Shown: piece after piece, positions 4,701 through 60,000 of the stretch | How the letters are laid out: each line of letters opens with the position of its first letter | Numbering within the stretch: position 1 is the stretch's first letter | Assembly (NCBI GenBank): GCA_036785375.1 | Contig: JAWMAR010000351.1 | Location: 372,001-436,000 of the forward strand | DNA length: 64,000 bases | Reading direction: 5' to 3' | Origin: Leucoraja ocellata | Taxonomy: Eukaryota | Position numbers and translations under genes: made by a program | Notes under the pieces: generated by a model | Databases searched by the model: none | Told to the model about the DNA's origin: nothing | What the model saw: only the letters and a program-made list of their open reading frames with translations

Positions 4701-7700
4701 AAATAATTGCTACATTTCCTTGGTTATGAAGAATCATGAAGACGTTTCATGCAGAATACCATGCAGTCTTTGGATCTTTATGGCTGTGCTTGCTCCACAT
4801 GGGGCTGTCTGCTAGAAACCCTCCACTTTGTCTCAGCTTTTTAAGCATTTCTTTAATTCTGTCGTAAATGCCGTGGTCAACCCTTTGAAATGTCTTCCAG
4901 CCTCTGAAATATTGAGCACTTGTCAAACGTTTCTATGATGTTGTGTAACTCTGCCGTTGCTTTAAATGGTGTTAACTAATGTTTATTACATGATGATGAA
5001 TTTGCAATTTAATGTTGATTAATGAATTTTGTTGTTCTCTCCTTGTAAAATCCTGGAATTTCTGCTTCTTCTCCTGCTGCCTGATGTTTGGATGCTGTCT
5101 ACAGGACATACCTACTGGATGGGTTAATATTGCTTTTTGTTTTGTACTTTGCTGTGATATTGTCTGCCTCTTGCCTGTTGCTTTCTTTTGACTTGTGGTG
5201 GGAGAAGGTGATGAGAATGTTAACAAACTGACAATCAAGGCCAAAACCCATTGATGTAAATCATTTTATTCAATCAGTAGAAAAAAAGTCAGATCTGAAA
5301 ATGGAGATTTGCACCTGGGTCTTTCCCACCATTTACGGTTCTTGTTAATAATAGAATTAAAGGAAGGGGCATTTTCTCGTTGAGACAATGATTTCCACCC
5401 ATAATTAAAAATAAAATGCAGTTTTTCAACGATATTGATCCAAAATTAATATTCTGTGGATTCCGGAAATTTTATATTTAAAAAAAATAAAAAATACTAC
5501 AGCAAGTCTGAAAGAGAAACTAAGTTAATTTTTCAGGTTAATCTTTAATTGGCATTGTTATTTATCAGAATTATTGACTCTTTTATTGTGTTTTGCATAT
5601 ATGTGTCAATTACTGTCAGTCTTGGGCATTAATTGACAGACATAATGAAATATCAGTAGCGTCCCAGTTTGTAAAGTTCTGTTAAAAGTGTAAAGATTGG
5701 AGTCTGATGCCTACTGAAGATAGTGTGTTTGAGGTTGAGGATTAGCTAACATTGCCTGGACATTGGGAGTCATGCTGACCCTTTTGAAACTGCACATGTC
5801 ATGTTTAGAGTGAAATCCCAGAATTTGCTGTTCAATGGGTGATTTACATTTTGAGTGAGGGGTCGACATGGATTTTTTAAAGGTGCAGCAGATTTAAACA
5901 TTGTTTCTGTAGAGAGAAGCAGGAAATTGTGTAGATCAGTGAATAATTCATTTCAACCTTTTGGCATAAGTAAAAAAATACGAATACTGCAGATTCTTAG
6001 TAATTTCATAATTTTGAGAGGGCACGTGAAATGTTTTCATTTTAAAATTTTAATGTAATGAAAAGACTGAACTATCTATTAAAGTGGAGGGGAGGTGGGC
6101 TTCCTAAAAGCTCAGGTCAAAAGATGAGTTTTGTGGAGACTTTTAAAGATAGAAAAGATTAGTAGGAGAGATGCAAATGTGAGTGGGTTTTACATTTTCA
6201 GACTGGAGTGTGTTGGTTGCATCAGTTGGATAAATCAAATACAGAAGCAGTTTGTTAGCAAGGATATTTAAATCACTGAATTGTGAGCAGAGCCAGAATG
6301 ATGAATGAAAGTTGCCCCTACATAAGACAGGTTTGGGTAACTGCAAAAATGCTGCTTTTCGTAAACACGATAGTTAAAGCAGTTGAACTATGTAGCCCTA
6401 CTATCCTTGTTTGAGATTACAATTCTAACTCTGAAACCCTCTGACTTTTCACATGAGCATGGAGGAAATTGTATTTCAACATGACTTTCCGTTCTGAACT
6501 CATTTTTATATTTGTGTTCTTTCTTTTCCAATCTTGTCGTCTTTTTCCTATTAGCATAGCGTACCGTCGTGTCATTCATGTCTATCAGTATGAAGTTGGG
6601 GATGATCTGGCTGGAAGGTTTTTCTTTCTTCCTCATTTTTGTGTTGTTTGTAACGCACTTGCTTACTTGCCAACTGAATGGCTTTTTCCTCCGGTACTAA
6701 TGTCACTGCTATAAGCTCACAGCTTTTGTTCATTTTCCAAAGGACAGGGCTTTTTGGGTAAATATTTGTGTGGCTTTATGATGCTGCTGCTGGCATCCTG
6801 ATTTGGTCTGACATTGCGTGGAGTAACTGTGATGGTGGATCCCAGTTGCCTTTTTGCCTGAGGCATAAATGACCGTGGGATCTGTGTCATGGAGATTTAA
6901 TGTGGACATCTTTTTGTTTGTAAAACTTCTTGTCTGAAACTGACATCCTGGACGCCCGCAAATAGTCAGCACAATCTTGTTGACACATTATTTTGGGTGC
7001 AATCTATTCAGAAACCCTTTTTAATGTTCATTTAGTGGCAGTTATGTCACCATTGCTTCCAAATTCTAGTTATTCTTGAAGGTGGTGTTTTTTTTTGATA
7101 AACGTGCAGATCTAAACTGCAGTCAGGAGCGTGAAGCCTGTCTGATTAGTTTTCAGATCGTACCACCCATGACGTGGTACCTTGCATGCAGCCGTTCCAA
7201 GTGCCAAGCTACTTTCTGCTACCATATCTGAGGTTACATAGTGCAGCCCAATTGAACTTGGAATCTTGCTGTTTATAGATTTTAAGTTGTTCAAATAATA
7301 ATTTGGGGGAATGCTTGCAAACCCAAGCCCAGATGGCATGTGTGTAGCCATCTTGTCTTGCACATGGCCCATGAGACTTAATTTGATTCAAGGTTTTTTT
7401 CATCCTAGATTGTTTATACATTGGTTAAGACCTGAGGGCCAATTTTGAAACGGATAATTAAAACATTAAGGTGGCTCCTCTATTTACGCAATCAAGTTAA
7501 TTCTCTGAGCTCCCAAATTGTTTTATCCAGTTGCTCTGAATGCACGACTATGAGTGTCTGCATCTCCACTCACAGATAATCCTCATTGGATAACTTATCG
7601 CAGCGACTCTAGCTCACTTTCAGCTTGGCCGTTTCAAGGGTTGTGATCTTATACTTTGATAACTGGGTGATTCCTTTGCTTGCATAGGACATAAGAGATG

Positions 7701-10700
7701 GAACTTGTGGATCTTGACTGCATAATGAAAGAATCAAAGTTTTGAAGGATGGCTTCCATTGTGGGTGGATGTCACGGTAGTGACATTATGCTTTTGGATT
7801 CATTGATGGCTCTTAAATAACATTTTTTTTTTTACTACCATTGTCCTTAGTTTTGTTGGGACTGATTGCACCCTGTTTTGTACAGCTCATTTAAGAGGGA
7901 ATATTAATTTAAATAAATATATTCACCTAGAATGGAGATTCTCTTGTGATATCATCAATGTATATATACAGTGCCTTCCATAATGTTTGGGACAAAGACC
8001 CACCATTTATTTATTTGCCTCTGTACTCCACAATTTGTGATTTGTAATAGAAAAAAAAATCACATGTGGTTAAAGTGCACATTTGTTATATAGGCCATTT
8101 TTATACATTTTGGTTTCACCATGTAGAAATTACAGCAGTGTTTATGAAAGTAATCATGTTTAGTATTTTGTTGCATATCCTTTGCATGCAATGACTTTGA
8201 AGTCTGCGATTCATGGACATCACCAGTTGCTGAGTGTCTTCTCTGGTGATGCTCTGCCAGGCCTATATTGCAGCCATCTTTAGCTTGTGCTTGTTTTGGG
8301 GGCAAGTCCCCTTCAGTTTTCTCTTCAGCATACAAAAGGCATGCTCAATTGGGTTCAGATTGGGTGATTGACTTGGCCACTCAAGAATTGCCATCACACT
8401 GATATGTTAATCTTCGTCTCATTTGTCCACAAGACCTTTTTCCAGTACTGTGGTTGTTCTTTTAAGAACTTCTTGGCAAACTAACCTGGCCATCCTATTT
8501 TTGCGGCTAACCAGTGGTTTGCATCTTGCAGTGTAGTCTCTGTATTTCTGTTCATGAAGTCTTTTTCAGACAGTGGTCATTGACAAATCCACACCCGACT
8601 CCTGAAAAATGTTTCTGATCTGTCGGACAGGTGTTTGGGGATTTTTCTTTATTATAGAGAGAATTCTTCTGTCATCAGCTGTGGAGGTCTTCCTTGGCCT
8701 GCCAGTCCCTTTGCGATTAGTAAGCTCACCAGTGCTCCCTTTCTTCTTAATGATGTCCCAAACAGTTGACTTTGGTAAGCCTAAGGTTTGGTGGATGTCT
8801 CTAACAGTTTTATTCTTGTTTCTCAGTCTCATAATGGCCTCTTTGACATTCACTGGCACAACTTTGGTCCTCATGTTGATAAACAGCAATAAAGGTTTCC
8901 ATAGGTGATGGAAAGACGGAAGGAAAGCCTAGGTGCTGAGAGCTCTCTTATACCTGTATTGATGAAGCAAACACACCTGAGCAATTACAAACACCTGTGA
9001 AGCCATATGTCCCAAACATTATGGTGCCCTGAAATGGGGGGACAATATATAAACACAGCTGTAATTTCTACATGGTGAAACCAAAAAGTAATAAAATCTG
9101 ACAATGTGCACTTTAACCACATGTGATTTATTTTCTATCACAAATCTCAAATTGTGGAGTACAGAGGCAAATAAATAAATGATGGGTCTTTGTCCCAAAC
9201 ATTATGGAGGGCACTGTAGCTAAAGCAGCATGTACACTTGAAACCAAACTGCTACATGGAATCAGATTTTTTTAAACAACATACACAAGGGTTTTGCTTT
9301 AGCCAAACTTAATTTTCCGTTGGTTTATATGGGCTTTACTTCCAGGAAGGAACATTTCATCTGGAACTTAATTAAATTTGTTAAATAAACAAATGGTGAA
9401 GCTGGTTTAGAGTCGCAGCCGTAAAAGTCTATTTGCCTACTTCAAAATTAATTCACATATCTAGATGCCACACTTACTGACATACAATTTTTTAATGATT
9501 ATTTGCACTTTATTTTATGTCGCACCTTCTGTGATTTGGAACAATAATCTTCTCGGCTCCTACCTTTGTTCTGCATGGTCCAGTTATTAGGAATTTATGA
9601 CCAAGGCCTTGTGACACTTGCCCTTTTATTACTGATTGCCTGAGATAACTGGGAACTACAAAATGTAGAAGGGCTTCTATCCTAACACTTCCTTTAAAAA
9701 AGCTTGTCTGCAATATTCTTTATAACTGGATCATTCCAATAATATTGGTATATCTCAGTTGATTCTACCATTGATCATCAGGAATGAATATAAAATTTAC
9801 TTTATTAGTTTGGAGAAAGAACATTGAGTTGCAAACGTCACATTGGTGCAGATTGAAGAGTATGACTTCAAACAAAGTCCTTCTCTTTCTTTCTCCCACA
9901 TCATTCCATCTATCTGTAGATTTGCCCTTTACCGCAACTATCTCTTCCTGGGTCTTAGGATTTAGCTCTACTCGAGCACCTTTGGTGGTGCAGCCACCTC
10001 AGCTCCAGGGACACAAGTTTGATCCTTATCTCCTATCTGCGTGGAGTTTGCACGTTTTCTGTGTCAATGTAATGGTTCTTGTTGGATGCTCTGGTTTCCA
10101 CTCTCATCCCAGGACATGCTAGTAGTTTATAATAGGCTACTGTAAAATACCCCCTAGTTGTGGGTAAATGGCTTAAAAATCAAAAGGATTTTGATTTTCC
10201 CTGTAGCCGTCTGTCATGTTCTGGGTATGAGAGAATAAGTTGCACAGCTGCAGAGGAAAATAGGAAGCAGGGATGCATCTGATGAGAATGCTCTGCTGGT
10301 AGTTGGTGCTGACATGGTAAGCTGGATGGCCTTGCATGTTTTAATAAATATGTTAATGAATTTAGGTTCTCCAACTTTCATTTCTAAAAGCCTGAGTATT
10401 GTTGGAAAACTTGGCTTACCCTGACTGACATATAACCTTTGTGGAACAGGAGCAGATTTATATTAGAAACTAAATGGCAGCCAAGTCTTTGTAGTCAACT
10501 TTGCTACAGCACATGCTGCACATTAAAACAGAGAATGGCGAAAATCAGATTAATGAAGGGAACAGATCATTTACATGCAGAGAAGCAGAGCACTTCCTGT
10601 CAGATTACAGAATTGTGAATCAAGTTGAGTTTTCTAGCGTTGCCTTTACAAATAAAAGCATTTTCTAAAACTGTAGGTTTGCAGCCTTATGAGTGACAGT

Positions 10701-13700
10701 TGTGAATATTGAATATGACCACCTTTTCTTGATTTTTGGAAAGAAGCAATGCCGGAGTAACTCAGCGGGTCAGGCAGCATTCCTGGAGAACATGGATAGG
10801 CGACTTTTTGAGTTGGGACCCTTCATCAGACCAATAGTCTGAAAAAGGATCCAGACTCAAAACATCCACCTATACATGTTCTCCAGGGATGCTGCCTGAC
10901 CCGCTGAGTTACTTCAGCATTTTGTCTCATCCTGTGATAAGCCAGCATCTGTAGTTCCATGTTTCTACTTTCTTTGATAATTAGGTTAGTTCTTTTGAAT
11001 AAATGTAATCTTTTTCAAAGTAGAAGAGGCCACTAACCTTGTTAAATTAAATCATGAAAGTTCAATGAACTTGTGCCTTATATTAGAGAGTTTACAATGT
11101 TAATTTTCAGGAGAATTAGATTTAGCTCTTAGGACTAAGAGAATTGAGGGATATGGGGAAAAAGCTAGAACTGATTTTGGATGATCATATTGAATGGCAG
11201 TGCTGGCTCGAAGGGCCGAATGGCCTACTCCTGCACCTATTTTCTATGTTTCTAGAGCTTGTGTAATTGTTTTAAAATAATTAATTTAAACTGAGAAACC
11301 AATCAGTGACCTGCCTTTTAGTTCTAGAATTGAAATTGCTATTTATCCGAGCATGACATTTCCTAGAATTTATTTTTAAAGGTGAATTATCTTAATAATG
11401 GCACACCTTCATTAGCTCATTTTATAATTGTGTTCAACCTGCACATCAGGTCTTGCATGGTGGAGGAATCGGGAACACTGGAGTCACAGCTGGAGGCAAC
11501 CAAGGTATGGCAAGTTTCATTCTCTAAATATTGAATTATATAGATAAGGGAGGGATACTGAATACTCAGAACTGAAAGGAGATGTTTTGAAAGATTTATG
11601 AATCAGTACTACAAGGAGAAAGATTTTTGGATTTGGAAATTACTATTTGTCTTAGTAATGAGGACAAATTGGGAAATGTTTTGTTTGCATGGAATCATTA
11701 TAACATGGGATGTTTTTCAAGTTATTAAATGAATTGAATAACAATTTTGAGAGTTAAGGTGAGCTGAAATTACGTCAAACTGCTGTCTCTTTTGTTCTTG
11801 TTTCAGCGGTTTTTCAAAAAATCTCGAATCATTTGAGAGATAATTTCTTTACCTGTTACTATTCGTTTTACTTTTTACCCCAATCCCAAAAAGGAACCCA
11901 TCGAATCTGTCCGATTTCACACTTAAAATCGGTTTGATTGTTATTTTCTATTAAAATGGTGCCTTTCAGAAATTATAAACTTGTGGTATGCAATTTCTCA
12001 TTTCCCATTGAGTTGTTTTGTCAACAATTGGTTACTCGTCAGAAGCTTTTCTCCTTCCTTGCACCCATTATAAAATAAATGGGTAAACTTGGTAGTGTAA
12101 CCACTGCAAAAAGTTGTGAACAGTGCCCAGTCCATCATCATTGGCTCTGACCTCCCCACCATCAAAGGGATTTATCCGAGTTGCTGCCTCAAAAAGGCAG
12201 CCGGCATAGTCAGAGACCCACACCATCCTGGCCACACACTCATTTCACCCCTGCCATCGAGAAGAAGGTACAGAAGCCTGAAAACTAACGTCCAGGTTCA
12301 GGAACAACTTCTTCCCTACAGCCATCAGGCTATTAAACATTACAACCTCAAATAAGCTCTGAACTACAATACTTATTATTATTATTATTACACTGCTATT
12401 GTCTGTTTTTTGAGTATGTTGTGTGTGTATATATTTGCATGTGTATATAATATATCTAATATATATAGAAAATATACACACACACGTGGGTATGGATATA
12501 TATGTGTACTTGTGGGGATGTGTGTATATATGCACACAACTTTTTTTCCGTCTCGTTTATCATATTGTTTACAGTACTATGTTTACATATTCTGTTGTGC
12601 TGCAACAAGTAAGAATGTCATTGTTCTATCTGGGACACATGACAATAAAACACTCTTGACTTATGCATCCTTGGTGTTGTTTGCATTCGGAATGTCATGA
12701 ATAATGTGGTTGCCCATTTACATTTGTGGTACCAATAAACTGTAATGACTCTTCCTTGCCTATAATGTCTTCATTCACAGAGAAAGCATCAGGAGATTCG
12801 AGCAATGAGAAGTCAATTGAAAAAGATTGAGGACCTAGGAGCAGCAATGGAGGAAGCATTGATCTTAGATAATAAGTACACGGAGCACAGCACTGTGGGG
12901 TTGGCACAGCAATGGGACCAATTGGATCAACTGGGCATGAGAATGCAACATAACCTGGAACAACAAATACAGGCCAGGTAAACAATTACAGTTTAAACTG
13001 TGAAGATCTTAAGTGGGTAGAGGAGGGCTGCAGGGAAGATTTTTTTTCCCACTACTTTTAGGTTGAGGAAGCTGGGTTGTTTTCCCATGGAGCAATAAAA
13101 GATTTGATAGATTGTGGTTTGGGAAAGGAGGCAAAGAAAAGCAGTTTCCATTACCTTGTTATACAAAGCCACATGTAGGGTTCTGAGTAGGGGATACGGG
13201 GTGGGGCTGAAGAATCTGAAAGCATTTAACCTCTCTGAATAATACGACTGATTTTAAAGGGAAATGAACAAGAGAAGTAAACTTGAAAGGTGCAAAGCAG
13301 GTGAAATAGTTTGTTTCAGCGCTGACAAGTTTTGATATGAAACTTGGCTAAGAACATGGCATTCGAAACCAAGCAGTTGGCTCCCTTGAAGTGTATCTTG
13401 AAGTAGGAAAACAGAAAAACACATCACCATTCCTTGACCATTTTCAATTTGCACTCAGCTGGTGTGGAAGTTGTATATATTTCAGAAAATTTAGATTGAT
13501 TTTTATATGTTATAGGAACACTACCGGTGTAACAGAGGAAGCTCTTAAAGAATTCAGCATGATGTTCAAGTAAGTGTGGGTTTCTTTTGGCCAATTTTGT
13601 TTTGTGAATTGTCACCGTGCTGACATGTTAACATTTTAATTTTTCTCCCAGGCATTTTGACAAGGACAAATCTGGACGACTGAATCATCAGGAATTTAAA

Positions 13701-21300: not shown

Positions 21301-24300
21301 TAAAACAGGTTTTAAATTTCAGGTCAATTTCTGGTGCTCTCATCAGTTTCCCCCGTCACAGATGTGTTGGTGAATCTAATGAGCATTTCCAAATTTTGTT
21401 TTTTTAATCTCAAATTTTACACAACTGCAGCATTTCTCTTTTAGTTTTCAGAATGGCTGATTTCCTGAAAGTGTGATGTTTTGCTTTTCTTTTCAAACTT
21501 GGTTATAAACTGCCATGTTGAAAAATAATTGATAAAAAAGGAAATAATATTCACCTATCACCAAGTCTTTTCCAGTCATATCTACCCTGTAGGGTTATCT
21601 CAAGTCAAATGAATAATGTCTCGGCTCATAATTATCAGATCCCTAAATTTGAGTCCAAATACTAGTGTAGATCTACAAATGCAGATCTGAGCACACGAGG
21701 TAAAAAAGCAATGCAATGATTTTCTAGACGACAGGTATCAGCAAGCATCTGATTATGAACAAGTAAACGTGTCTCCATTGGAATAACTGAAAAGCTTGCA
21801 GCCAGGTTGTTGAGGTAAAATTCTGATGATATTCTGCTTCTGTGGTTGCCAAATTTCAGACGTGGAAGCAACAATCTGCCAGCTTTGGGAGAACGTCAAA
21901 CTCAATTTCAACATCGAATAACATTACAAAGACTGCTCGCCTTAAGTTTGACATTGCGTGGCATCTGCTGAACGACAAGAGCAAATCCATCCTGCAGTAC
22001 TAATTGACCTTTGCCATCCATCGCCCAGTTGAGAATCTTTCCATCCGTACTCGCACTCAGAAGATTAATTCTGTTGCTGCGACTCAAACTCTGGTTCCAC
22101 TGCACCTGTTTTGGGAGGGAACAGACATGTTTTATACTTAAAACTCACCACAGGTTAAACATTAGTGAAAGAAAATAATGTGACTCTTCCTCCTCCTCCT
22201 CTCAATGGTGTCTAGTGGATAATATTATTCCAATAAAAAACAGATGTCCATCACCATCATCTTGCGCTCATCCAATTCTAACTGCAATCAATTTGCACCA
22301 AGACCCTTTCACCCATTACCCCTATAATCACCGACTTTCTAGGTTCCAGGTACAGACCTCAAGCAACCTACTGCTTCCACCATAGCATTACACTCTCCAT
22401 GCCTGCTCTCAACTATTCCCTTCTCGAAGGTACACAAAAATGCTGGAGAAACTCAACGGGTGCAGCAGCATCTATGGAGCAAAGGAGATAGGCAACGTTT
22501 CTGGCCGAAGCGTTGCCCATCTCATTTGCTCCATAGATGCTGCTGCACCCGTTGAGTTTCTCCAGCATTTTTGTGTACCTTCGATTTTCCAGCATCTGCA
22601 GTTCCTTCTTAAACACTATTCCCTTCTCCACAATTACAGCAGCCATGCCTTCAGTTGCCTCAGCCCCAAGGTGAGCAACTCACTCTGCCTATGTTGTTGT
22701 CTTGTTTTAAATCCCTCCTAAAATAATTTCATGGGCTTGAAAAAACGGAATTTCCATCACACTAAAAATATTCTAGCAATGGTGATGTCAACATAAATGC
22801 TGGTGTGGAAAGTGTGAGGCACTGAATTTATATTCGATTCAATCACATTGAAGATCTGGAATATAGTTAAAGCAATATTAAAGCAGCAAAGGGAAAGCCA
22901 AGATGTTGAAAATGGCCCAGACTAAACATTTTACCTGATAAACAGGCTCACGGTGAGTATCTTCAGATATTCCTGATCTAGCAATTAATGGATCATCAGT
23001 TTTACTGCAGTTCCACACTAACACCTCTCCATTGTAAAGCCCACCTGAAGAAAACATATACATTTAGATTACAATCTTTTCCTAACCTTAGTTGATTAAT
23101 ACTGATATACAAAATGTCATGAAATACCAATGTATTGGCCAGTAAGTTGAATGCTAGGTCAGACCTAGGCTGGACATATAGGATACAGCCCAGTTTAAGT
23201 TGAGTGCAACAAACTACAGAACTGGATAATCTTGCTGTAAGATATTGCATCTTTGGAATGTGGGAGTCTTTTTATAAAGTCAGCACTCAATTCATGCCAC
23301 CTGTCTTCTTGAATCTCTGCAATCCATGTGCAGGAGTTTCCACTGTACACTTTATCTATGGGGTGTCAGGATTTTGATCCAGTGGAGATGAAGTAACATA
23401 ACAAAAACAGGAGCTGGAATAGGCTATCGAACTCTTGAAGCTGTTCCAACACTCAAGAATCGAATCTTGGCTTTAATGCCACATTTATGCATTGTCACCA
23501 TGCCTCCTTTCCTGTAGGGTTCAAATCCCTACTAATTGAATATGCTCGGTGATTGTATCGTCATGCTCTCTGGGGTATGGAATCCCAAAGAGACAACTCT
23601 CAGAGCCCTCAGAGAAATATCTCATCTCCATCGTAAATTGGTATACAGACCTCATTCTGAAACAATGCTCACTCATTCCAGATAACTACACTAGGGGATC
23701 CTCTGCACCATTCTGTTAGAACCTCTCAAATATACATTTAAATAAAATTCCCATTCTTCCACACTTATATTGTAGGGGCACCCTCTTCATGTCACCAGCA
23801 TCATCCCAGGTTCAACTCAACAAACCGTCACTGTACTGTCTGCAATGCAAGTGTATCGCTCTTTAAATATGGAAACCAAAATTGTAAGTAATACTTCAGG
23901 TGCTGTCTCACCAACGCTCTGTAAATTTCAATTAAAGGTTCCCTACTTTTACACTCCATACCACTAGCAATAAAGGGCAACATTCAATAATCCATGCTAA
24001 GTACTTTTCACAAACACATACCAACTCTTGATTTTCATGCACCAATACACAAGAATCACTGCTCCTCCATAATGAACAACTTGGAAGTAGTGAAAGTATG
24101 GAATGGAATACTTTATTGTCACATGTGGCTAGGCACAATGAAAGTCTTTGTTTGCATACCCAACGTATACAAATAGCAGCCACCTACAGCACTGACAAAG
24201 TTACAGAGCACGCCGGCTCCTCCTTTTGTTCTTCCCCCCTCCCCCACAGTGGCCCCCCCCACGTCGGGTCCCCATTGTCCTTTGTTCTCCCCCCCTCCCC

Positions 24301-33300: not shown

Positions 33301-35829
33301 TGACTGTTCCAATACATTCTTCCCTTGTATAAATTTGCAGGCATATGAATTAGGAGCTGACTACCCACTGTAATTTAAAAACATCTTGTTTTGTGTGATT
33401 GATTGAAAGATACAGCATGGAAACGGGTCCTTTGACCCACCGTTTTGCAGGCACCTTTGGAATTTCTACCCTGCAGGTGGAACAGTGTGTATGCAGGTCT
33501 GAAGAAGGGTTTCGACCCGAAATGACACCCATTCCTTCTCTCCAGAGATGCTGCCTGTCCCACTGTTCAACTTTTTGTGTCCATCTTTAGTGCATACGCA
33601 GGTTTGTGATGAGAGAGTCTGGCACCTTGTCATGAATAACAACAATGTCAGACTGTTGCCCGACCAGTTTGTTGCAAAACACTCCTAATTTTGACACCAT
33701 TCCCCAGATGTTTAAGGAACTCCACAGGTCAAGCGAGCTGGAAGCAACTTTGTTGTATCTTAATTTGATACCTAGGTCAATATCAGGTAGTCTATCTGCA
33801 AAACGCTCTCTCTTAATGTAGCAGTAACAGTGCAAAAAAGGTTTGTCCAGTTATTTTAGTGTCAAACATTCATAATGGAAATGGAAACAAGGGACTGCAA
33901 TGCTGGAATCACGAGCAAAACGCTGGAGAAACTCAGCAGGTCAGGCAACATCTGTGGAGGGAATGGACAGATGATGTTTTGGGTCACGATCCTTGTTCAG
34001 TTCAGTGTTGGATTAGGGAGGGAAAAGCTGGAAAAGAGAAGTGGGAGCAGGACAAAGGCTGGCAAGTGTGAAGTGGATATCAGTGAAATGGGGGTGCAGT
34101 GGGGGTGATTGTCAGACGGGTGAAATAGAGATAGAAATAGAGACAAAGACTGGAGGTGAAAAGAAGATAAAAGGTGTCAGCTAAGGAAAGAAGAGAAGGT
34201 GTGGAATATAATGGCAGAGGGAGAAATAAGGGGCTATGAGAAACAGGAAAGAGGGAAGATAAAATTAAAAATTGAGATGGAGATGGGAGAAGCATATGGA
34301 GAAAGGGAAGGATCAGGGTGGTAGTGGAGGGGGGGGGGGGGGGGAGAGGGGTTGATACTTGCAATTTTTGTTCAAACACTCTTAATGATAATTTGGAGTC
34401 ACACGGAAGTTATACCATACAAGGCTGGCAGATTCCCTATCTGAACGACACAAGTGAATCAGATTGTTTCTACCATCGATTTGATCATATTTGTGGTCTA
34501 AGATGTTATTATTTTTCCAAATTGATTGATATTAATTGAACTTAAATTTCACAGCAGCATTGTGTGATTTAAGTCGGGTCTCTCAATATTATTTCAGGTC
34601 TTTGGATTGCTAATCCATGAATTTAACTCCCGTATCACTGTACATTTGTTCAACTTCATTATTGAAGACCTTTTTTGTAAACTACCTTCAGGCTTTACAA
34701 CCAATAAAATCTAACTGAAGTTGGATCAGAATCATTATATAGAAAATGCCAATGCCAAAGATTCTGACAAGATTATGCAATAAATTTGCTTAGATTATCT
34801 GCTTTCGTATTGCTAACGGAGAGACAAATATTGACCACGACATCGGTGTTGAGAACTAGCTTCTTTTACATTAATCATAGAAAACAATGCAGATTTTTGT
34901 ATAATGTTGCAAACATGTACATATCTGCCATTCAACAAATGTATGCAGAAGAGGAATAAGTGCAAATAGAAATTTGTCACTTAAAGAAGGTGTGTATGTC
35001 TCTGTGATATTCTGAAGCCGTTAAGTATATAAATACATCATTTATATCCTACACATTACGCACAAATTCGCATTAAAACACAGGAACAAATCATTTTCCA
35101 CCACGATCAAAATACCACAATCAATCATAGTTCCTCATCTATTTAAAAACATATAGGAAATAATTAAAGTTTGCAAATATAAATTAACTGGATGAAAGAT
35201 ACGCGTCATGCAGTTTCGGAAGGGTCTCAACCCGAAACGTCACCCATTCCTTTTCTCCAGTCACTCCAGCATTTTGTGTCTATCTTCGGTGTAAACAAAC
35301 ATCTACAGTTCCTTCCTCCACATGCAGTGTTTGTTTATGTACATGCAAGGACAGGTTCATGTCAAGAATATCCTAACTAACATATGAACATTTAGTTGTC
35401 TACATACATGTTGATATAATTGAATTCACAATTATATTGTACGTGTTGTGAAACTACACAGATCTTGAAATATCCTAATTCCCACTAACTCACTGTCTGT
35501 GGCTGGTCTACCCAGTTAACTTCAAAACCATCAAACGCGTGGCTCTGGATATTCTTCCTTAACTCCTTGATCACCATCGGCTCCACTTGCCGCAGGAAGC
35601 GGGCTAGGCGTGGGAAATCAACCGATGGTTCGATGCTGCGATCCGCGACAGAGAGGTCTCGGCGGTCGGAAAGCTCTGTCTGCGTACTGATCTCCGCGCT
35701 GCGTCGTATCTGCACTGAGGCTTCGGCGCGCCGAACCTCCACTGTTTGACAAACTGCGTCACAGAACTCGGGAGTTTTTCTCCAGCGCGACTCCACCGTC
35801 ACGGCCTCTTGCGCCTCGTCGGTGAACAT
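18110..35829 (-). CDS. DYNC2I2: DYNC2I2 (WDR34), dynein-2 intermediate chain; 8 coding exons, 1503 nt, 500 aa
   Basis: Spliced translation MFTDEAQ...[11 protein letters not shown]...WD40 repeats...[18 protein letters not shown]; exon phases add up in frame; QT motifs near the N-terminus. Confidence 0.95.
20364..20521 (-). CDS. DYNC2I2: DYNC2I2 exon 7 ([19 protein letters not shown]...AAATGEG)
   Basis: ctcgcag|A AAC ... GAG G|gtaagt; 158 nt. Confidence 0.93.
20919..21145 (-). CDS. DYNC2I2: DYNC2I2 exon 6 ([12 protein letters not shown]...CSPFHR)
   Basis: ccccag|GTA ... CAC AG|gtctgt; 227 nt. Confidence 0.9.
21941..22105 (-). CDS. DYNC2I2: DYNC2I2 exon 5 (VQWNQ...PRNVKLK), GC donor
   Basis: aacag|GTG ... 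AAG|gcgagc; 165 nt. Confidence 0.85.
22426..22614. repeat. Fold-back Penelope-like repeat insertion with 14-bp TSD
   Basis: Palindrome 22424-22584; ACTATTCCCTTCTC at 22412-22425 and 22615-22628. Confidence 0.85.
22935..23044 (-). CDS. DYNC2I2: DYNC2I2 exon 4 ([10 protein letters not shown]...EPVYQ)
   Basis: cttcag|GT GGG ... CAG|gtaaaa; 110 nt. Confidence 0.93.
27356..27513 (-). CDS. DYNC2I2: DYNC2I2 exon 3 ([21 protein letters not shown]...PSLIAG)
   Basis: tacag|G TTA ... GCT G|gtatgt; 158 nt. Confidence 0.93.
27845..28091 (+). mobile_element. 5'-truncated V-SINE (HE1-like)
   Basis: V-domain plus GGGCCGAAGGGCCTGTTTCC and a (CTAAA)n tail. Confidence 0.8.
29047..29156 (-). CDS. DYNC2I2: DYNC2I2 exon 2 ([10 protein letters not shown]...CSYGR)
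   Basis: gtag|GTT ... GGC AG|gtattg; 110 nt. Confidence 0.92.
29620..30378 (+). mobile_element. CR1 LINE 3' fragment
   Basis: ORF with [19 protein letters not shown] and RTRGHSLK; (TTTCTATG)n tail. Confidence 0.9.
31214..31646 (-). mobile_element. CR1 LINE 3' fragment
   Basis: [13 protein letters not shown]...[10 protein letters not shown]; (CATAGAAA)n tail. Confidence 0.9.
35494..35829 (-). CDS. DYNC2I2: DYNC2I2 exon 1
   Basis: ATG at 35829; ...CAG ACA|gtgagt; 336 nt. Confidence 0.92.
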
Positions 35830-36377
35830 GGCCCGTCGAGTTACAAAATCAAACGAAATCTCAACCGATTTTCATTTATTTCTCGACAGAAATGCCCCCA
35901 AGCCTAGAACTCATCCGCCTCCCCCACACACACAAAAAAAACCCTCATCCACCGAGCATGAGCTAATATTCGACACGATCCAATCAGTGCGCCCTGTCAC
36001 CATGACGACCTGGTCCAATTGGTGCCCGCTGCTTCGTGACGTCACCGCCGCCCTCGCGCCGCCGCCGAGATGGGCCAATGGAAGGCGACGCTGAAGGGTA
36101 TGTCGGAGCAAGGGCGGCGCGACGCGCCTGCGTGGTGGCGGCGGCTCGGAGTGCTGTGCTGTGGTGTGTGTGTGTGTGTCTGCGCGCGCGTGCGTGTGGA
36201 GCTGCTGGGCTCGAGCGTTTTTTTTCCACTGTGATAGAGGCGCGAGACCCACTCTGAGCCTTCGAGAGGGGGAAAGAGAACGAGTGAAGGGAAGATTAAA
36301 CTAAATAAAAGCGCATCTAGAGCTTTTCATCTTTTTTCCCCTCTTTTTTTATTTCCCCCCTCTTTCCTCCTTCCAAG
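35830..36377. promoter_or_regulatory. CpG-island bidirectional promoter of DYNC2I2 and SET
   Basis: CpG-rich; CCAAT at 35980, 36015 (CCAATTGG) and 36075; CRE TGACGTCA at 36037-36044; GC boxes; X-box-like GTCACCATGACGAC at 35996-36009. Confidence 0.85.
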
Positions 36378-43858
<7,481 letters not shown>

Positions 43859-44621: not shown

Positions 44622-44627
44622 AATAAA
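44622..44627 (+). terminator. SET proximal poly(A) signal
   Basis: AATAAA flanked by UGUA motifs, with GU-rich sequence downstream. Confidence 0.7.
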
Positions 44628-44763
44628 ACTAAATGTGTACACAAAAAGTGTGTGGTGAGTTTACTTTTCACCTGGAATGTTCTGAGAGCTTGTTATCAGA
44701 CATCTTGAATAATAATTTTATAACGTTTAGAGGAAATTCTATGGATCTGAAGTAATATCTGAC

Positions 44764-44856
44764 GTCTGAAGAAGGGTCTTGACCCGAAACATCACCCATT
44801 CCGTCTCCAGAGATGCTGCCTGTCCCACTGAGTTACTCCAGCATATTGTGTCTACC
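44764..44856 (+). repeat. Penelope-like short repeat with hammerhead-like core and 11-bp TSD
   Basis: CTGAAGA-AGGGT-CTTG-ACCC-GAAA-CA-TC; TAATATCTGAC at 44753-63 and 44857-67. Confidence 0.8.
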
Positions 44857-46650
44857 TAATATCTGACAATGACCGTCCAAATTGTTGTTTCAAAGTGGCC
44901 ATTCCAAATTTTTTTTTTTTTTTGCATTCAATATTCTTTATAACCAAATAAGTTACAAAAGTTGAAAACCAGTCATGTCATCTGCTGAATGTGATTTTAT
45001 TTTTGGTATTGCAATTTAATATGCAATTTATTTAAATGCAGTATAGGCATAAGAGCAATTAATGTATTTGGTCCTACTATTGTACACTAAGTGTTTCTAG
45101 CCTGGTCTGTGTTCAAATATATGTAAACAGCCCAAATGTGTGTAATTAGATTCCTTTTCTGTATTTAATAGCTATTAGATTGTAACTAAAACAGAATAAG
45201 ATTGCAACTTGGCATTCCCTTTACTCAAATGGGTCCAGTGCTGCATTGCAAGTTTGATAACCATATTCTGCATTGGACAGTTGGTTAATTAATGGTGTCT
45301 CTTAAATTCCAAGATTTGTTTTGACTTCTAGTTAAGTTTAAGTTGTGTGTTGTCTTGGCAATAGCTATATATCTGATGGCTTGTTTTGTTGATCTAAAAT
45401 GCGCCATGGGTACCATGCCAACTGCGATTAGCCCCATTTTACAGATTGTGTATAGATAATTATCTGAACCTCCGTTGGGCTTGATTATTGAATTTGAATT
45501 AATGGTACAATACATATACTGGATTTGATGTGTTCTTGAATACATTTATTTCTGGTTATGTTATTCGTTGTTTTTTTCATTTGGGATTCAATTATCCGAT
45601 CAGTAATGTGACACCACTGGGAGCTTAGTTTTCAAAATCCTAAATGCAAGTATTTTAAGCTCATTTAGCTTAATTTTCTTGTTGCTATTTCATGAATTTA
45701 TTTTTTTCGTACTAAATAATAACCATTTTGAATTGTTAATGTGCAGTGAAAAGGTTGGTCTCCGAATACCAAACTGCTTTGTGGGTTGAACTTGTCCCAA
45801 TTCCATTAATCCTGATTCATGCAGTTTTTTTTTTTTGCGTTGACCTTTTCTCACTTGTTTGACTTTTCAATTGCTGAGTGGGAAATTCTATCACTTGCAT
45901 TAACGGTTATAAAATAGGCCATTATGTATCGCTATACATGCCTTGTTCCTAAACCTTGCCAGAATGGTGCCCTAATTTGGCTTTGTATATTTGTCCTGAT
46001 CTACATTTCAATGAAATTGCAACAGTATTATGAGAATATCTGCTTAACACCTGCCCAATACCCCCTTAGACAGTAATATAACTGGAGCAACAAATGACAG
46101 TTTCACGGGTGCAAATTAAATTTCTGCTGGTGTGTAGTATATCTTCAGGAGTATTGTACATTAGCATTTTTTTTCCCCCACTGGGGATATACATTTTTTT
46201 AAAGAATCCTTCAGTTGAGGCTGTCTTTGCCACTTTCTTGAAGGATAATTGTGGTCAAGCTCCTCAGCAAGCTTTACCAGCCATTTACCATTTGTCTTCA
46301 TTCGGCAACTTAATGGAACAAAATAATAATTCGACCACCAGCTAGCAGAAGGGATATGTTCCTATAATTTATGGTTCTGGAGGTATTTTAATAAAAGATG
46401 GTATAAAATTTACTGATAACCAGAGCTATCTAGATTTTTGGAATTTGTTTACATGTCTGTCCTGGCATGTAACATCTTTTTGCTTGATGTTCTGGAGAGG
46501 AAGGTGTATAAACAATATTTTAGGATATTCCACTGGTTTGTAGACACCCATGTACTGGGGTTTGTTTCACATGGCAGCCTGAGGTGTCGTGACTTCATCT
46601 TTAAAACTTTGTTTTTTAAACAAATGGTTCTCATCTGTCCTGTTATCAAC

Positions 46651-46656
46651 AATAAA
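46651..46656 (+). terminator. Candidate SET distal poly(A) signal
   Basis: AATAAA followed by GU/U-rich sequence at the end of an AT-rich, UTR-like tract. Confidence 0.45.
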
Positions 46657-49601
46657 GTTTGTATACATGTTTTGCCACAGTGCTGTACATTGTCTTTACT
46701 GCTCTGAATGTACAATGCCAATAGCATTATCCAATATGTTAGCTGGACACTAGTTGTTTAATATTTGACATAACTGTCATTTAGCTATCGAGAATACTTT
46801 GCTGTTGATAGCTCCGGATAGCGGCAATCAGTGACCAAAATTGCTTTTTAACTGCATTTTGAGAATTGACCAATGGCTTTGATAGAACTATAGTTGAGAC
46901 TTATCTACATTAGGTCAGAAAAGAAATCCATCCTAAGAAATCAAGCACTGTTTCTCAAACTATGCTTTGGAACGATGTGTGTAATGTACTTTGTTTAAAT
47001 CTAAAGTACAATTCATTTCTGTCACTAGAAATGGTGCTCAATTGCAGAGAACTATAAAATCCAATGAAAGGCAAACACCAGGAACTATTCTTGAAGGGGA
47101 TTCTGCAAATTGATTGAAGATTTGTTATTGTCATGTTCTTAATTTTGCCTGTGGAATTGATGCTCTCCTAACTTGAATATATATGAAAATAGATGATAAT
47201 TGCCTTAGAAACCCCGATCAGCCTACAACCAAATCTTTGTTCTCTAGTGTTGATCATGTGTCCAAAGTACTATGTTTTTGTTATTGATTTGTCAACTTCC
47301 TAAATTATTTTGAATGTGATGGCCCACGTCAGAATAAAGCTGGCAACAAAGTGATGCTGAAACCATATTTGTTGAAAGTAATGTATAATTCCTAACATGT
47401 AGTTTGTGCTAGAGTTCTGTTTTCTTTCAAATTAGTGGGAGAAGAGGAAGAAAAATACTTTCTCTCACTGAGCCCAACCACTGACTACATCCAAAGAGTA
47501 GTGGTAGGGCTACTCTTTGGATGTAAAACACCTTCATCTTGTCTAAACACTTCCTGTATTAAAAAGGGTCTGTTTTTGTCAAATATGACCACAGCTAAAA
47601 ACTAGTTTTATCCTTGTGCCGTCGCCAGTGGTGGTGGCAAGAGTAAAATCTAGTTTCATAGAGGTCCACAATAGGATCATTTTTTATTATTCCCCTTTTT
47701 AATTCATGACAGACCTTTCAGTTAAGAGGAACATTAAAAGTTGTCATACAACATTTAAATGTGTAAGAACTGCACGTGCTGGTTTAAACCGAAGATAGAT
47801 ACAAAAAGCTGGAGTAACTCAGTGGGACAGGCAGCATCTCTGGAGATAAATCTTCATCTTGTGGAAGGCATAGTCAATTATTCACCAAACAAAATATTTA
47901 TTTTTAATTATAAAAATTAAACATGGATTTTATTGTTGGTATGACTTGGGCACCATAAGAAGTGTAGCAGCAAAGTTCTCTTGCAGAAGTCTGTCTATAA
48001 TCAGGGCAACAAATGTCTCTTCAGATTCTTCAAATTCTTTATCTGTAACGTGTTGAGGCCAAATATTGGGCTGAAATGACCACCCTGGTGAAACGAACAA
48101 TCAACAAACATGAAACAAAAAGTGAAGAAAGCAAACAGCATTAACCCCTCTTCCAGACCATTATACAATAGCAACAGTGATGAGCTTTGCATATTCGTGA
48201 ACAAAAGTTGAGACCAGGCCAAAGGAAGAGATCTGAGAAGTTGAAGAAAGAGGTATAATTTAGAATCGAAGAATGAGGGGAAGGGGTTCCAGAACTTGAA
48301 ATGTGGACAGGTATATGGATGACTAAACCCGATAGGATTAACAAAAAGTGTTGTACCAGAGCCTAGCCTTGGGCAAATCTACATGGAGGGTTGTATCTTG
48401 GATCGTTTCAAGAGAGAGTTAGATAGCTCTTAAGTCAGGGGATATGGGGAGAAGGCAGGAACAGGGTGCTGATTGTGGATGATCATAATGAATGGTGGTG
48501 CTGGCTCGTAGGGCCAAATGGCCTACTCCTGCACCTATTGTCTATAAGCAAAATTTGGAATGCCTGAGAATTTTCAATCCATGCACCATGAACACAAAGC
48601 AGCCAGCACTGGGAAAGCACAGAATTTCCATGTTTCCCTACCACATAGGACATACCACACCAGTTGCCAAGTAACTTACTAAGTCACACTTGGGCACGTG
48701 GGAGAACATGCAAATTCCACACATACAGCACTGGAGCTCAAGATTGAACCTAGTTCCCTACTGGGTTTCTTCCATTATGAAGCCATAAGACCACCCACTT
48801 GTCCCTTCAGGCACCTCCTGTCCTTTCTATGGAAGAGTCCGTGGTTCCAACATTGGTATTTCAGCTACCTCTAAACCCATAAAATTGGAGTGCAACCATG
48901 TCCTCCATCCTGAAAGGATGCTCAAGAAGAAGACACCAACTTGATGCAAGTTATATTAGAAAACACGAAAATAGGAGCAGAGTAGATTACTCAAGCCTGC
49001 CCTTCCATTCAATATGATCAAGATTGATCTGTCCCATTCCTCAGCTCTTGTCTGCCATGTCCCCTTAGCCCCCAATTCCACTATCTTTAAAAAGAAAGCC
49101 CCAATGATCGTGTTTCTATAACTTTCCAGGGCATCACCATTTTAAATGGCAATTGAATTTGTCACAACTATCAGTTTGAGACTTCCACCCATGATAATTT
49201 CTCAACATTACCCTGTATTGCTCATCTCAGAATGTTAAACTCCAAAAGAATACAGATGCAACTCTTTAGCCACTTGCAAAAGGACAACCTATAGCCAAGG
49301 GAATCTTCTTAGGATTGCTTCCAAAACTAATATATCCTTTGTCGAATATGTTAAGGGGACAAAACTATGCGGTACTTCAGGTTGGCCTCACTAACACCCT
49401 GTACAATTGTAACTCATTAAACGAGCCTGATAACATTTTGAGATTTATGTACAAGAACACCTAGATCTTCCTGTAAAAAAGGACACAAAGTGCTGGAGTA
49501 ACTGGGGTGACCTGTTACTTCAGCATTCAGTGTCATTTTTTTGTAAACCAACATCTGCAGTTTCATTTTTCTAGATCTCCCTGTCTTTCACTCATTTATA
49601 A

Positions 49602-57082: not shown

Positions 57083-60000
57083 GTCAGGAATGGTCGCGGT
57101 GGCGACGGTATATCTTTGGTGGTCTCGGGGACTGGCAGATAACTCTCTTGAAGTTGATGTATCCTCCCCGAAGTTAGACACAAAATGCTGGAGTAACTCA
57201 GCGGGACAGGCAGCATCTATGGAGAGAAGGAATGGGTCACGTTTCGGGTCGAGACCCTTCTTCAGACTGAGTCGGGAGAGAGGGAGACTAGTAGAGATAT
57301 GGAAGGGTACAGAGCATGTCGGGTGTGAAAAGGACAGATCAGAGCAGGGCCTGGTCGGCACTGAACCCATACAATTATGACTTGGACAGATATAGATAGG
57401 AAGGACGCAAAGTGCTGGAGTAACTCGGTGGGTCAGCCAGCATCTCGGGAGAACATTTCGGCTCCGGACCCTTCTTCAGACTGACCTCTCCAGGGATACT
57501 GCCTGGCCTGGCGAGTTGTTCCACAACGTTGCATTTTTATTTTGTAAACCGGCATCAGCAATTTCTTGTTTCTACTAGGTATAGGTGGCTATGGGGGGCA
57601 GATGGTTGAACGAAAGCCATGAATGAAAAGGAGTGAGTCACAGGATTGGAGGTAGACACAAAATGTTGGAGTAATGCCCCTGTCCCACTTAGGAACCTGA
57701 ACGGAAGCTTCAGGAGACTTTGCGCCCCACCCAAGGTTTCCGTGCGGTTCCCAGAGGTTGCAGGTTGGGAGACTGACAAAAAACCTCCGGGAACCGCACG
57801 GAAACCTTGGGTGGGGCACAAAGTCTCCAGAGGTTTCCGTTCAGGTTTCCTAAGTGGGAAAGGGGCATAACTCAGCGGGACGGGCAGCATCTCTGGAGAG
57901 AAGGAATGGGTGACGTTTCGGGTCGAGACCCTTCTGAGTCAAAGAATCGATTAGTTGTGAATTGTGAAGCTAGAGGAAGGAATGCAGGTGGGAACAATAT
58001 AGGTGCCAGTCCAGGTGGGACTTGGGGAGTGGGGGAAATAGGTTGGGGTGGAGGGATGGAACAAGGTTGGTTGGGGGGGGGGGGAGAGAGGAGGGAAGAA
58101 AGTGAGGGGTTTGGGGTGAAGGGTTGTAATCACCTAAAATTGGAGAATACAATGTTCATACTGTTGGATAGGAAGGGCAATGGCCTCAATGCAGGCAAAT
58201 GGCACCAGCCCAATCAATATGTCAATTTGGTTGGTATAAACAAGGTGGACTGAAGGGCCCGTTTCTGTATTGTGCAGCGCAATCGTCCGATGAATTTAGT
58301 CAAAATAAAACCAGACTTGGCGACTTCCTGACTTTATAAATGGAAAATGCTTAGGAGATCAGGTAGAATAAAATTGAGCTAACTGCGCTACCCTTCCCTG
58401 TGTAATTGGAAGGAACATTTTGGTCATCTGCCTTAACTCGTTTTTGTAGCTTGGAAGCAATGTATCCACTAAATCCACTAGTGGGCTCCACTAACTATCC
58501 TGGAGGTATGCCAATGGTGTCATATATAACATGTCAACCTGTGGATGTAACTTGCTGTTTTAGCAAAGTAAAACCTATTTACACTCGATATCACAAAAGA
58601 TAGCACCTTAAAAAATTACTCCATAATTACTGAACTAATGAAGATACAAGAGACTGCAGATTCTGAAATTCCAAGCAAAAAACAAAGTGCTGGAGAATCC
58701 CAACAGGTCAGGCAGCTTCTGTGAAGGGAATGGGCAGGTAATGTTTTGGATTGGGATTCTTCTTTGTACTCAGAATTTTTTGGGGGGGCTTTTTATTACG
58801 AAATTGATGTTAATCTGGTTTAGTGAGTGGTAGGTTTGCTTCTCAGTCAGAAGTTGTTATTAGCATTGTGTAAGGAGTTGATCACAATTTAGGCGTAGTA
58901 CAACAAAACGGATAATACAATGCTACTTTCAGTAGAAACCTGATATGCTATCTTCATTGAGTGGCAATTTAATTTGCAATATCACTGAAAATACACAACT
59001 GTTCGTTTTTTCATTAAAAATAAGGTGTCTCAGCTGTTGATGAGCCAAAGATTAGACCTGACACAAGGAGCTGACTTCTTAGATCCCAACATGCAGCAAA
59101 AACTGGAAGGAGTAAAAGGTCTGATTCGGCGTGAAATACAAAAGGAACTTAAAATCAAAGAAGGAACAGAGAACTTGCGCAAGGTAATGACAAATAAAAA
59201 AAATCTGGCACATGTAGAAAACATTCTAAAGAGCTCGAATCAAAAACTGGAACGCCTGCATTGGGAACTTCAGGAGCTGAATGCACAAATTGTTGTCATG
59301 GATAGGGACAATCTGAGAGGTGAGTGCAAGTCTTGGACATCCTTTTCTGGAATATCATTGTTCAAAATAGTGATTCATTTTTTAAAAATTGTAGTATTTT
59401 CCTTCATAAGCAGTTCTGTCGGTTGGATACATTTTGTTATATATGCTCTGTTGTTGATCTTGAGTTTGGCTGACTTGGTGGTTCCATGTGCCTGTCACTC
59501 TTTGTAGTGTAAGATGTAAATGTAGTTGAGTTGTGATCTTGGCTGGGTAGTTGGTGGGGTTGCAGTAGTTAGTTCCCTAATAAGGCACAAAAACATACTA
59601 TTTTATCCATAAATAATCATGGAGCTTTTATTAATAATAATGCATTATTGGAACTTTGGGATATTGTTCAGCTGAAATTGTTGTTTTCTTGATGTGTGGT
59701 AAAGTCTCACTGATCTGTTGTAATTTAAAGTCAAAGCCTCCCCTTGGACTTCTTCATTAAATCTTGTCAACCTTGTTCTTTCTCGGTGTGTATGCCCACT
59801 CCACACATGTCCTTTGTACTGAAGTGTTGTGATATTGTATTTTAGTTCTACCATCCACAGGTTAAGGCTCTACAAGTCTTGTGATGGGTAGCAGGTTTCT
59901 CTATATTGTGTACGGTTTACAAAGAGCAGGTCTCATTCATGTGGAAAGGGAACAGTTAGTAAATAGATGTAGGGGATTTTTAAGAAATGCATTTTATTTC

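Follow-up and report, generated by a model that had tools for sequence, protein, structure and literature searches.

Does a short repeat with the bases of a ribozyme, inserted behind the coding region of a gene, act on the RNA of its host, and by what route did it arrive there? The question is raised by a stretch of 64,000 nucleotides from Leucoraja ocellata (assembly GCA_036785375.1, contig JAWMAR010000351.1, positions 372,001 to 436,000 of the forward strand), referred to as the window throughout. It contains the SET gene and, in sense orientation downstream of its stop codon, a 93-bp insertion with a minimal hammerhead core. A preliminary description made from the sequence had proposed a non-autonomous, retrozyme-like ribozyme family that could affect host 3' ends. 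We arrived at a different view and consider it likely that the SET repeat is a separate short hammerhead-plus-tail copy of a Neptune-type Penelope-like element (PLE), made as a run-off cDNA and carried as an inert passenger of the 3' untranslated region (UTR). The observations behind this view are the anatomy of the parent, the identity of the short copies (stubs) with its terminus, target-site duplications (TSDs), two fixed 3' ends, a sharp 5' edge and neutral decay.

The Insertion and Its Hammerhead Core

The length of the insertion, its 11-bp TSD, its start two nucleotides before the core and the core motif itself, followed letter by letter from 44766 to 44793, were all as first described. 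The proximal AATAAA of SET, said to lie about 140 nucleotides upstream, was found at 44622, 142 nucleotides upstream. The insertion opens with GT and continues CTGAAGA-A-GGGT-CTTG-ACCC-GAAA-CA-TC, which comprises the CUGAAGA box (44766-72), an extra A (44773), stem II of GGGU and ACCC (44774-85), GAAA (44786-89), loop III (44790-91, CA in this copy and CG in the family) and UC (44792-93). All catalytic bases are kept. With both boxes, the extra base before stem II and G10.1-C11.1 present, the reading as a minimal hammerhead holds. A covariance-type hammerhead search had been suggested as a check; Rfam returned no hammerhead match even at E≤5. The hammerhead pattern is preserved by the changes that distinguish subfamilies (N7, loop II, C17>U, and U-A>U-G both in stem II and at 2.1-1.1), and this suggests constraint on the parent. 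The family also has the palindrome at 15.2-16.2 for helix III of a dimer (ACGT in loci L022 and L065). In both young subfamilies the fold model predicts a hairpin between the purine-rich core and the pyrimidines after the cut, at module positions +0 to +52, that would dominate over the hammerhead; it could be an "off" fold relieved by protein binding.

At up to three mismatches the core motif matched the window seven times (0.03 expected), and nhmmer gave 19 matches at E<0.5, the SET copy included. Five further sites had been listed for the motif, partial or mutated copies among them. None carries the full motif, each being damaged in the core or in stem II: CTGA is missing at 35215 and 57935(-), 57265(-) has G at position 17, stem II is broken at 57479(-), and site 33499 reads GAAATGAC.

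The Parental Element

The SET copy is identical in 86 of 93 nucleotides to the terminus of locus L022, two of the seven differences being CpG decay, and this terminus is joined to the end of a PLE open reading frame (ORF) with CX4CxxC and LGSLHPSG motifs. This identifies the repeat as the hammerhead-and-tail terminus of a PLE that codes for protein. Identity to the element at L061 was 73 of 93 nucleotides. Several motif copies follow an ORF end that matches GIY-YIG and a UTR rich in pyrimidines, and a protein search yielded 150 scored matches at 98-100% identity. At L061 the motif occurs twice, 3,589 bp apart, flanking an open frame of 1,021 codons. Pfam searches of L061 and L068 detected a reverse transcriptase (RT) domain (RVT_1, E 1e-4 and 7e-6) and GIY-YIG (E 8e-3 and 6e-3), respectively. 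The PLE link that had been proposed was thus borne out by a parent with RT and GIY-YIG. Both main types of solo copies also occur joined to a pseudo-long terminal repeat (pLTR) or to the ORF.

Among 20 long loci, RYIDD was present in 17, CNRKRCNTC and YIGET in all 20 and ADKGG in 15, the loci without ADKGG being mostly 5'-truncated. Direct pLTRs were found at L061/L062 and an inverted 5' pLTR at L064, L065, L069 and L078 (4/20). The parental ORF starts approximately 165 nucleotides after the hammerhead core; its end motif lies 116-247 nucleotides upstream of the core, and the 3' UTRs differ among subfamilies. A CX2-5CxxC linker is a mark of Neptune/Nematis elements (PMC8557442). By this motif, the parent is assigned to the Neptune type of endonuclease-containing (EN+) PLEs.

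Some further peculiarities of the element were noted. Positions 3790-4120 of L061 hold a long Pro/Gly-rich region with short tandem repeats, located between the N-terminus and the RT domain of the ORF. The stubs of L189, L172 and L173 have inserted at one and the same AT-rich place close to where the PLE's own ORF ends, which suggests self-targeting by the endonuclease, as in vitro for the PLE of the anole; self-targeting could be a route to partial tandems (pLTRs). Most of the loci L321-L349, which continue beyond the tail, are chimeras, with 60-300 nucleotides of the ORF 5' end fused directly ahead of another module, and look as if the RT had jumped to a second RNA after stopping.

Abundance and Decay of the Copies

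The core motif had 37,483 exact matches in the genome (none with the reversed pattern as control), and the other core type, that of subfamily B with GCCC in stem II, had 36,465. For an unselected sample, 120 evenly chosen 10-kb stretches (1.2 Mb) were searched with a profile. This gave 573 fragments covering 4.4% of bases, or ~480 fragments per Mb; extrapolation to the 3.44-Gb assembly, which contains duplicated regions, results in about 1.6 million fragments.

The stem II loop had been described as the main place of change. Among 284 unselected copies, the CpG sites changed most, with the catalytic G12 and G16.2 at 33% each, and the loop less, at 15-27%. Mismatch outside CpGs was 0.081 in the core versus 0.091-0.102 elsewhere. 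Preferential conservation of core nucleotides, which the preliminary description had expected of a ribozyme family, was not seen among these copies, which decay neutrally after insertion; selection on the core after insertion was likewise not seen. From that description the repeat and its TSD remain, while the listed sites and the stem-II-loop variation were overstated. For the three or four oldest clusters, the majority letters are unreliable because of CpG decay.

On C1, between ~68 kb and 3.1 Mb, pairs of loci with ~98% identity stand in mirrored order (L001/L017, L002/L016, L003/L015, L004/L014, L010/L011), suggesting a megabase-scale inverted duplication, either real or an assembly artefact. 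Similar mirrored pairs were found on C24, C130, C171, and C298.

Ends of the Copies

The 3' ends of 72 young copies fell on two places ~34 nucleotides apart (45 short, 26 long, 1 intermediate). For PLEs, a tail with two RT start sites was described by Frangieh et al. (PMC11167929). The arrangement at the 5' side was determined for those unselected copies that extend to the start of the core with sufficient flanking sequence (n = 307): solos account for 149, copies with an inverted arm for 88 and copies running on into the pLTR for 64; the other 6, mostly partial, have a same-strand neighbour within 60 nucleotides. TSDs of 7-19 bp were observed for 25 of 87 solos, after 11 of 98 had been reclassed as short pLTR, compared to 5, 6 and 4 of 87 in swapped-flank controls. 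Of the 25 solos with TSDs, 21 start at -5 to 0 relative to the core.

Young copies of subfamily B, picked by their 3' half alone, numbered 72 before and 67 after removal of duplicates. Twenty-one continue into the pLTR, none starts at -10 to -6 and 26 start at -5 to 0, 12 of them exactly at -2; the remaining starts lie inside the core (15), within 3 nucleotides of the cut (3) or beyond it (2). For subfamily A (n = 47, with approximately three copies with indels placed downstream of their true start) 24 starts were found at ≤0, 14 inside the core, 4 near the cut and 5 beyond. Altogether 7 of 114 young copies start within 3 nucleotides of the cut, which is close to the local background. The 86 distinct junctions among 100 listed, tallied by hand, comprised 8 at ≤0, 8 at -1, 34 at -2, 10 at -3, 8 at -4, 12 at -5 and 6 longer. 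Genome-wide, 5,836 of the 36,465 B-type cores have a non-A and thus non-parent base before GT, 7,151 have the exact parental 11-mer, and a non-parent base before AGT was counted for 3,556 cores. An A before the first base after the cut was found in at most 336 copies, point mutants included, a number whose ratio to 5,836 is rough, as the patterns differ and as the control (4,917 matches) is invalid, A at its place being a natural variant of subfamilies or CpGs. The 5' ends thus pile up 0-5 nucleotides before the core and are rare at the cut, so cleavage products were not a preferred template, and the lack of ends at the cut agrees with uncleaved RNA as template.

The fillers before a GT start are non-random in young copies (GGGT 9/34, TCCGT 6/34). 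Perfect palindromic fusions centred just before GT are also present among them.

Probable Place of the Copy in the SET Transcript

SET was identified by exon 39393-39533, which matched the PDB entry "Protein SET" at E 2e-26, and by its NAP domain. Three data sets of relatives bear on the 3' end of SET. Positions 44828-46676 are covered by one contig of run X1, which is RNA by guess; the sense reads of the single-cell run X23 have their peak at 46460-46684; and in run X21 the stranded poly(A) reads end by 46684. The distal AATAAA is therefore used, and the copy probably lies within a long SET 3' UTR. Its placement between two SET poly(A) sites, claimed earlier, holds for the distal signal in relatives, the proximal AATAAA being a candidate only. 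A UTR insertion needs no special explanation because of the density of ~480 fragments per Mb.

The suggested effect on SET 3' ends found no support. Cleavage ends after the UC at 44793, named earlier as a check, were searched for, and no pile-up of read ends was seen there or elsewhere in the element; the placed RNA reads (7,862 and 16,726) fell nearly all on the repeat and came from many copies, and circles or uncapped fragments are poorly shown by them. The palindrome at 15.2-16.2 is absent from the SET copy, which has ACAT due to G16.2>A, and the nhmmer hits of the window include no partner copy in the SET UTR. Helix I consists of 2 bp (44764-65 with 44794-95) followed by mismatches. The predicted probability of stem II was 0.01-0.05, and the hammerhead fold was disfavoured by the fold model, which takes no account of tertiary contacts or protein. 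The earlier suspicion that this copy, with CA instead of CG, may be inactive is likely right.

The GC-rich promoter region upstream of SET (35560-36140) contains two CCAAT boxes and may also serve a divergent transcript of the minus strand.

Proposed Origin of the Stubs and Alternative Explanations

The two sets of ends could arise as follows. The PLE protein would nick the target DNA and start cDNA at one of the two tail sites, as shown in vitro for the anole PLE (PMC11167929). A full transcript would hold the tail twice: priming at the 3' copy would lead to insertions bearing pLTR and ORF, priming at the 5' copy to run-off products of 93-130 nucleotides that end at the RNA start, A(-3)/G(-2), and would be joined to the target alone or head-to-head. 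The template would be uncleaved RNA. In the parent, the hammerhead is probably a genuine ribozyme, weak and dependent on protein.

TCAGTC stands before the core in 27 of 40 pLTR-bearing copies, despite unlike 3' UTRs. With A(-3) as +1, CGACC is found at +18 to +22 in 20 of 40, and CGTCA-like 5-mers at +28 to +32. The published consensus is an initiator (Inr) TCA+1GTY, CGANC at +18 to +22 and a downstream promoter element (DPE) RGWYV at +28 to +32 (PMC5580651), and an internal promoter of the Inr/DPE kind is located in the pLTR of Drosophila virilis Penelope (PMC2377424). The hammerhead may hence double as an internal Pol II core promoter, with the Inr TCA+1GTC, a CGACC in stem II resembling the motif ten element and a DPE-like CGTCA across the cut. 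We put this forward tentatively, as possible but doubtful: the DPE match is at best 4/5 because +28 is C, the young subfamily has CGGCC instead of CGACC, and the promoter-like bases are also under hammerhead constraint.

A number of observations weigh against the run-off origin and its parts. The Pfam scores for RT and GIY-YIG are under the gathering cut-offs, L061 has an early stop and YIDN, and none of the copies was confirmed as autonomous and fully intact. A cap-derived extra G at stub starts is only weakly suggested by the bases before GT (40 G, 33 C and 27 T of 100 listed, counted by hand; 27/100 G before AGT). The mode of the starts is G(-2), one base past the A+1 of the Inr. Thirty loci read on from the tail into the ORF; the 4 among them that exceed 1.4 kb include none that begins at -2 without a pLTR. 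In two raw RNA runs of relatives, which are poly(A) or single-cell libraries with reads mostly from embedded copies, no site of many RNA starts was found in the element, at 44764 or elsewhere. Membership of the copy in the SET transcript hangs on the one X1 contig, which reaches 29 letters into the insertion (below the bar of 31 letters), and raw-read depth is lacking at 44885-45559; continuity, and sharing of the insertion with the relative organism A, are therefore likely, not proven.

The sharp 5' edge might also come from structure or processing of a PLE copy, by exonuclease trimming, by arrest of the RT at the folded or protein-bound foot of the module, or by fold-back at TCAG-T-CTGA. The most frequent start, G(-2), coincides exactly with the outer base of the 2-bp helix I, and a competing hairpin, pairing the 5' strand of the core with the pyrimidines after the cut at a median predicted pairing of 0.69 (46 B copies) and 0.76 (9 A copies), begins at U-1. 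The inverted arm of 88/307 copies and TTCAGT, a palindromic extension absent from the parent but present in 8 of 86 distinct junctions (hand count), fit a fold-back, and self-priming at palindromes has been proposed for PLEs (PMC3846280). However, the non-parent base before GT in 34/86 junctions is unexplained by fold-back at TCAG, an RT coming from the 3' side reaches the other strand of the hairpin first, and TCAGT persists in subfamilies whose 3' UTRs differ. We consider an origin of the edge from structure or processing unlikely. That the pyrimidine tract and CAG form a 3' splice site, the stubs being copies of spliced RNA, is hardly probable at all. The pyrimidine-rich UTR does end in YCAG|T, and the intron of D. 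virilis Penelope ends at helix I (PMC4209133, PMC2377424), but the solos have no common upstream exon and their TSDs adjoin the start, only 1 of 500 cores is next to an ORF end, that one being an insertion with its own TSD, and the subfamilies do not share a donor GT at the stop codon.

If the stubs were instead a self-propagating non-autonomous family, resembling short interspersed elements or retrozymes, they would be transcribed, perhaps self-cleaved or circularised, and recopied in trans by the PLE protein. Their very high copy number would suit such a family, as would the presence of the tail and most of the putative downstream promoter and the mere 171 exact tail/ORF junctions of the young subfamily; furthermore, animal retrozymes derive from pLTRs (bioRxiv 10.64898/2026.07.22.740005). 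Nevertheless, we regard this as very improbable, as tandem arrays are lacking (6/307, mostly partial), the units of 93-130 nucleotides carry a minimal and not a canonical hammerhead, the starts are not at the cleavage site, the main types also occur joined to pLTR or ORF, and bulk poly(A) reads are strand-balanced (658 vs 586; 1717 vs 1676), as for passive copies. The canonical type I hammerhead, with a helix I of ~6 bp and loop-loop contact, is not found in the module. A retrozyme proper was rejected for lack of tandem arrangement and on the grounds of unit size, hammerhead type and end position. The family first described as retrozyme-like and non-autonomous is the end of an autonomous element, non-tandem, with 5' ends that avoid the cut and with neutral decay. 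The last alternative, that the SET copy has been domesticated as a ribozyme cutting the long SET isoform in cis, is extremely improbable. For it speak the sense copy between two AATAAA signals, the intact catalytic bases, the probable sharing with organism A and the hammerheads in 3' UTRs of rodent Clec2 genes (PMC6155905); against it stand the lost dimer palindrome, the short helix I, the weak stem II and the missing partner, the seven differences from L022, the lack of end pile-up at 44793, the insertions into UTRs expected by chance, and the inactivity of single minimal hammerheads, which do not cleave in vitro as monomers (PMC4209133).

Single-cell reads of run X23 on the module were 75-87% antisense, bulk poly(A) reads being unbiased. 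The excess probably results from internal oligo-dT priming on the A-rich complement of pLTR or tail.

Further Features of the Window

The related copies and the features of SET are summarized in Table 1. One copy is interrupted at 57675-57867 by an element of ~190 bp that resembles a miniature inverted-repeat transposable element, having long inverted repeats at its termini and a duplication of TTA. A 3-bp TWA duplication is reminiscent of PIF/Harbinger.

Table 1. Hammerhead-related copies and SET features, in positions of the window.
Feature	Position	Strand	Source or remark
Head-to-head pair of the module, older subfamily	10749..10928		nhmmer
Palindromic head-to-head pair, each arm beginning within the hammerhead	22428..22580		nhmmer
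Related copy, 3' part of core mutated, internal deletion	33497..33586	+	nhmmer
Old related copy, apparently with pyrimidine-rich pLTR in front (by eye)	33915..34001	-	nhmmer
Related copy without CTGA, internal deletion	35217..35287	+	nhmmer
SET gene, coding exons from start codon to stop (by eye)	36379..43858	+	stop 43856-43858
Related copy beginning inside stem II, in SET intron 1	37331..37415	+	nhmmer
Proximal AATAAA, candidate signal in SET 3' UTR	44622..44627	+	
Left TSD, 11 bp	44753..44763	+	same letters as 44857-44867
93-bp insertion, hammerhead and short-tail module of the Neptune-type PLE, subfamily A	44764..44856	+	identity to L022 and L061
Minimal hammerhead core, predicted cut after 44793	44766..44793	+	sequence
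Tail region, stopping at the first of two family 3' ends (~+93; second ~+128)	44794..44856	+	
Right TSD, 11 bp	44857..44867	+	exact match to 44753-44763
Distal AATAAA, RNA of relatives ends near 46676	46651..46656	+	
Related copy, partial pLTR in front, G at position 17	57172..57267	-	nhmmer
Related copy, short inverted arm, stem II broken	57385..57534		nhmmer
Related copy without CTGA, interrupted by 190-bp inverted-repeat insertion	57650..57935	-	nhmmer

Comparison With Known Systems and Implications

The module shares with the minimal hammerheads of PLEs described by Cervera and de la Peña (PMC4209133) the CUGANGA/GAAA/UH core, the extra base before stem II, G10.1-C11.1, the palindromic 15.2-16.2 and the lack of a helix III. 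There, too, most motifs are single remnants of truncated PLEs or close pairs on opposite strands. Helix II has 4 bp and helix I 2 bp here, compared to 7-8 and 4-5 in Schistosoma; helix I of D. virilis also has 2 bp. The number of copies is far higher, two patterns having >70,000 exact matches here compared to the 2,000-9,000 motifs reported, and a sharp 5' edge is not described in the accessible text on these hammerheads. Like Neptune-clade EN+ PLEs (PMC8557442; PMC3846280), the parent has a single ORF with RT, DKG motif, CX2-5CxxC linker and C-terminal GIY-YIG, direct and inverted pLTRs, an optional tail of 30-40 bp, TSDs and heavy 5' truncation; unlike in these, most insertions consist of the hammerhead-tail module only. 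Poseidon PAc of Anolis carolinensis (PMC11167929) likewise has two adjacent RT start sites defining a tail downstream of the hammerhead, does not need cleavage and shows the same lack of ends at the cut site, but it belongs to another clade and its ORF starts within stem II instead of ~165 nucleotides after the core. D. virilis Penelope and the Inr/DPE promoters of Drosophila long interspersed elements (PMC2377424; PMC5580651) offer a TCA+1GTY-like site and downstream motifs at matching distances in the pLTR; there the start lies ~120 nucleotides plus an intron upstream of the hammerhead, whereas the candidate motifs would overlap the core here. Animal retrozymes without LTRs (PMC7229834; bioRxiv 10.64898/2026.07.22.740005) have in common with the module a type I hammerhead, the absence of protein and a relation to pLTRs, but are tandem repeats of 150-450 bp with canonical hammerheads and circular RNA, in contrast to the module described here, whose minimal motif is scattered in solos or head-to-head pairs of 93-130 bp.

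Our literature search met no report of the family in sharks, skates or rays, although it may be named in Repbase/Dfam or in the supplementary files of a 2026 preprint with retrozymes from one chondrichthyan (bioRxiv 10.64898/2026.07.22.740005). Nor did it meet a report of a hammerhead-promoter overlap or a run-off origin, subscription papers being outside its scope. Dispersed minimal hammerheads from truncated PLEs are already in print, and in kind the family is ordinary. Its practical relevance lies in a caution: at ~4% of the genome by extrapolation, it is a source of false "ribozyme" and hairpin calls. Beyond that, the stubs are a natural record of PLE transposition, a poorly understood process. 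Their fixed 3' ends match RT start sites known in vitro, and their fixed 5' edge provides an exact and cheap prediction of the RNA start. If the promoter reading were true, transcription would start three bases ahead of the catalytic core, leaving no room for a full helix I, and part of the conservation of the motif would reflect promoter and not catalytic constraint. In that case the ~1 million stubs would represent run-off cDNAs, from which the transcription start of the element and its two RT start sites could be read.

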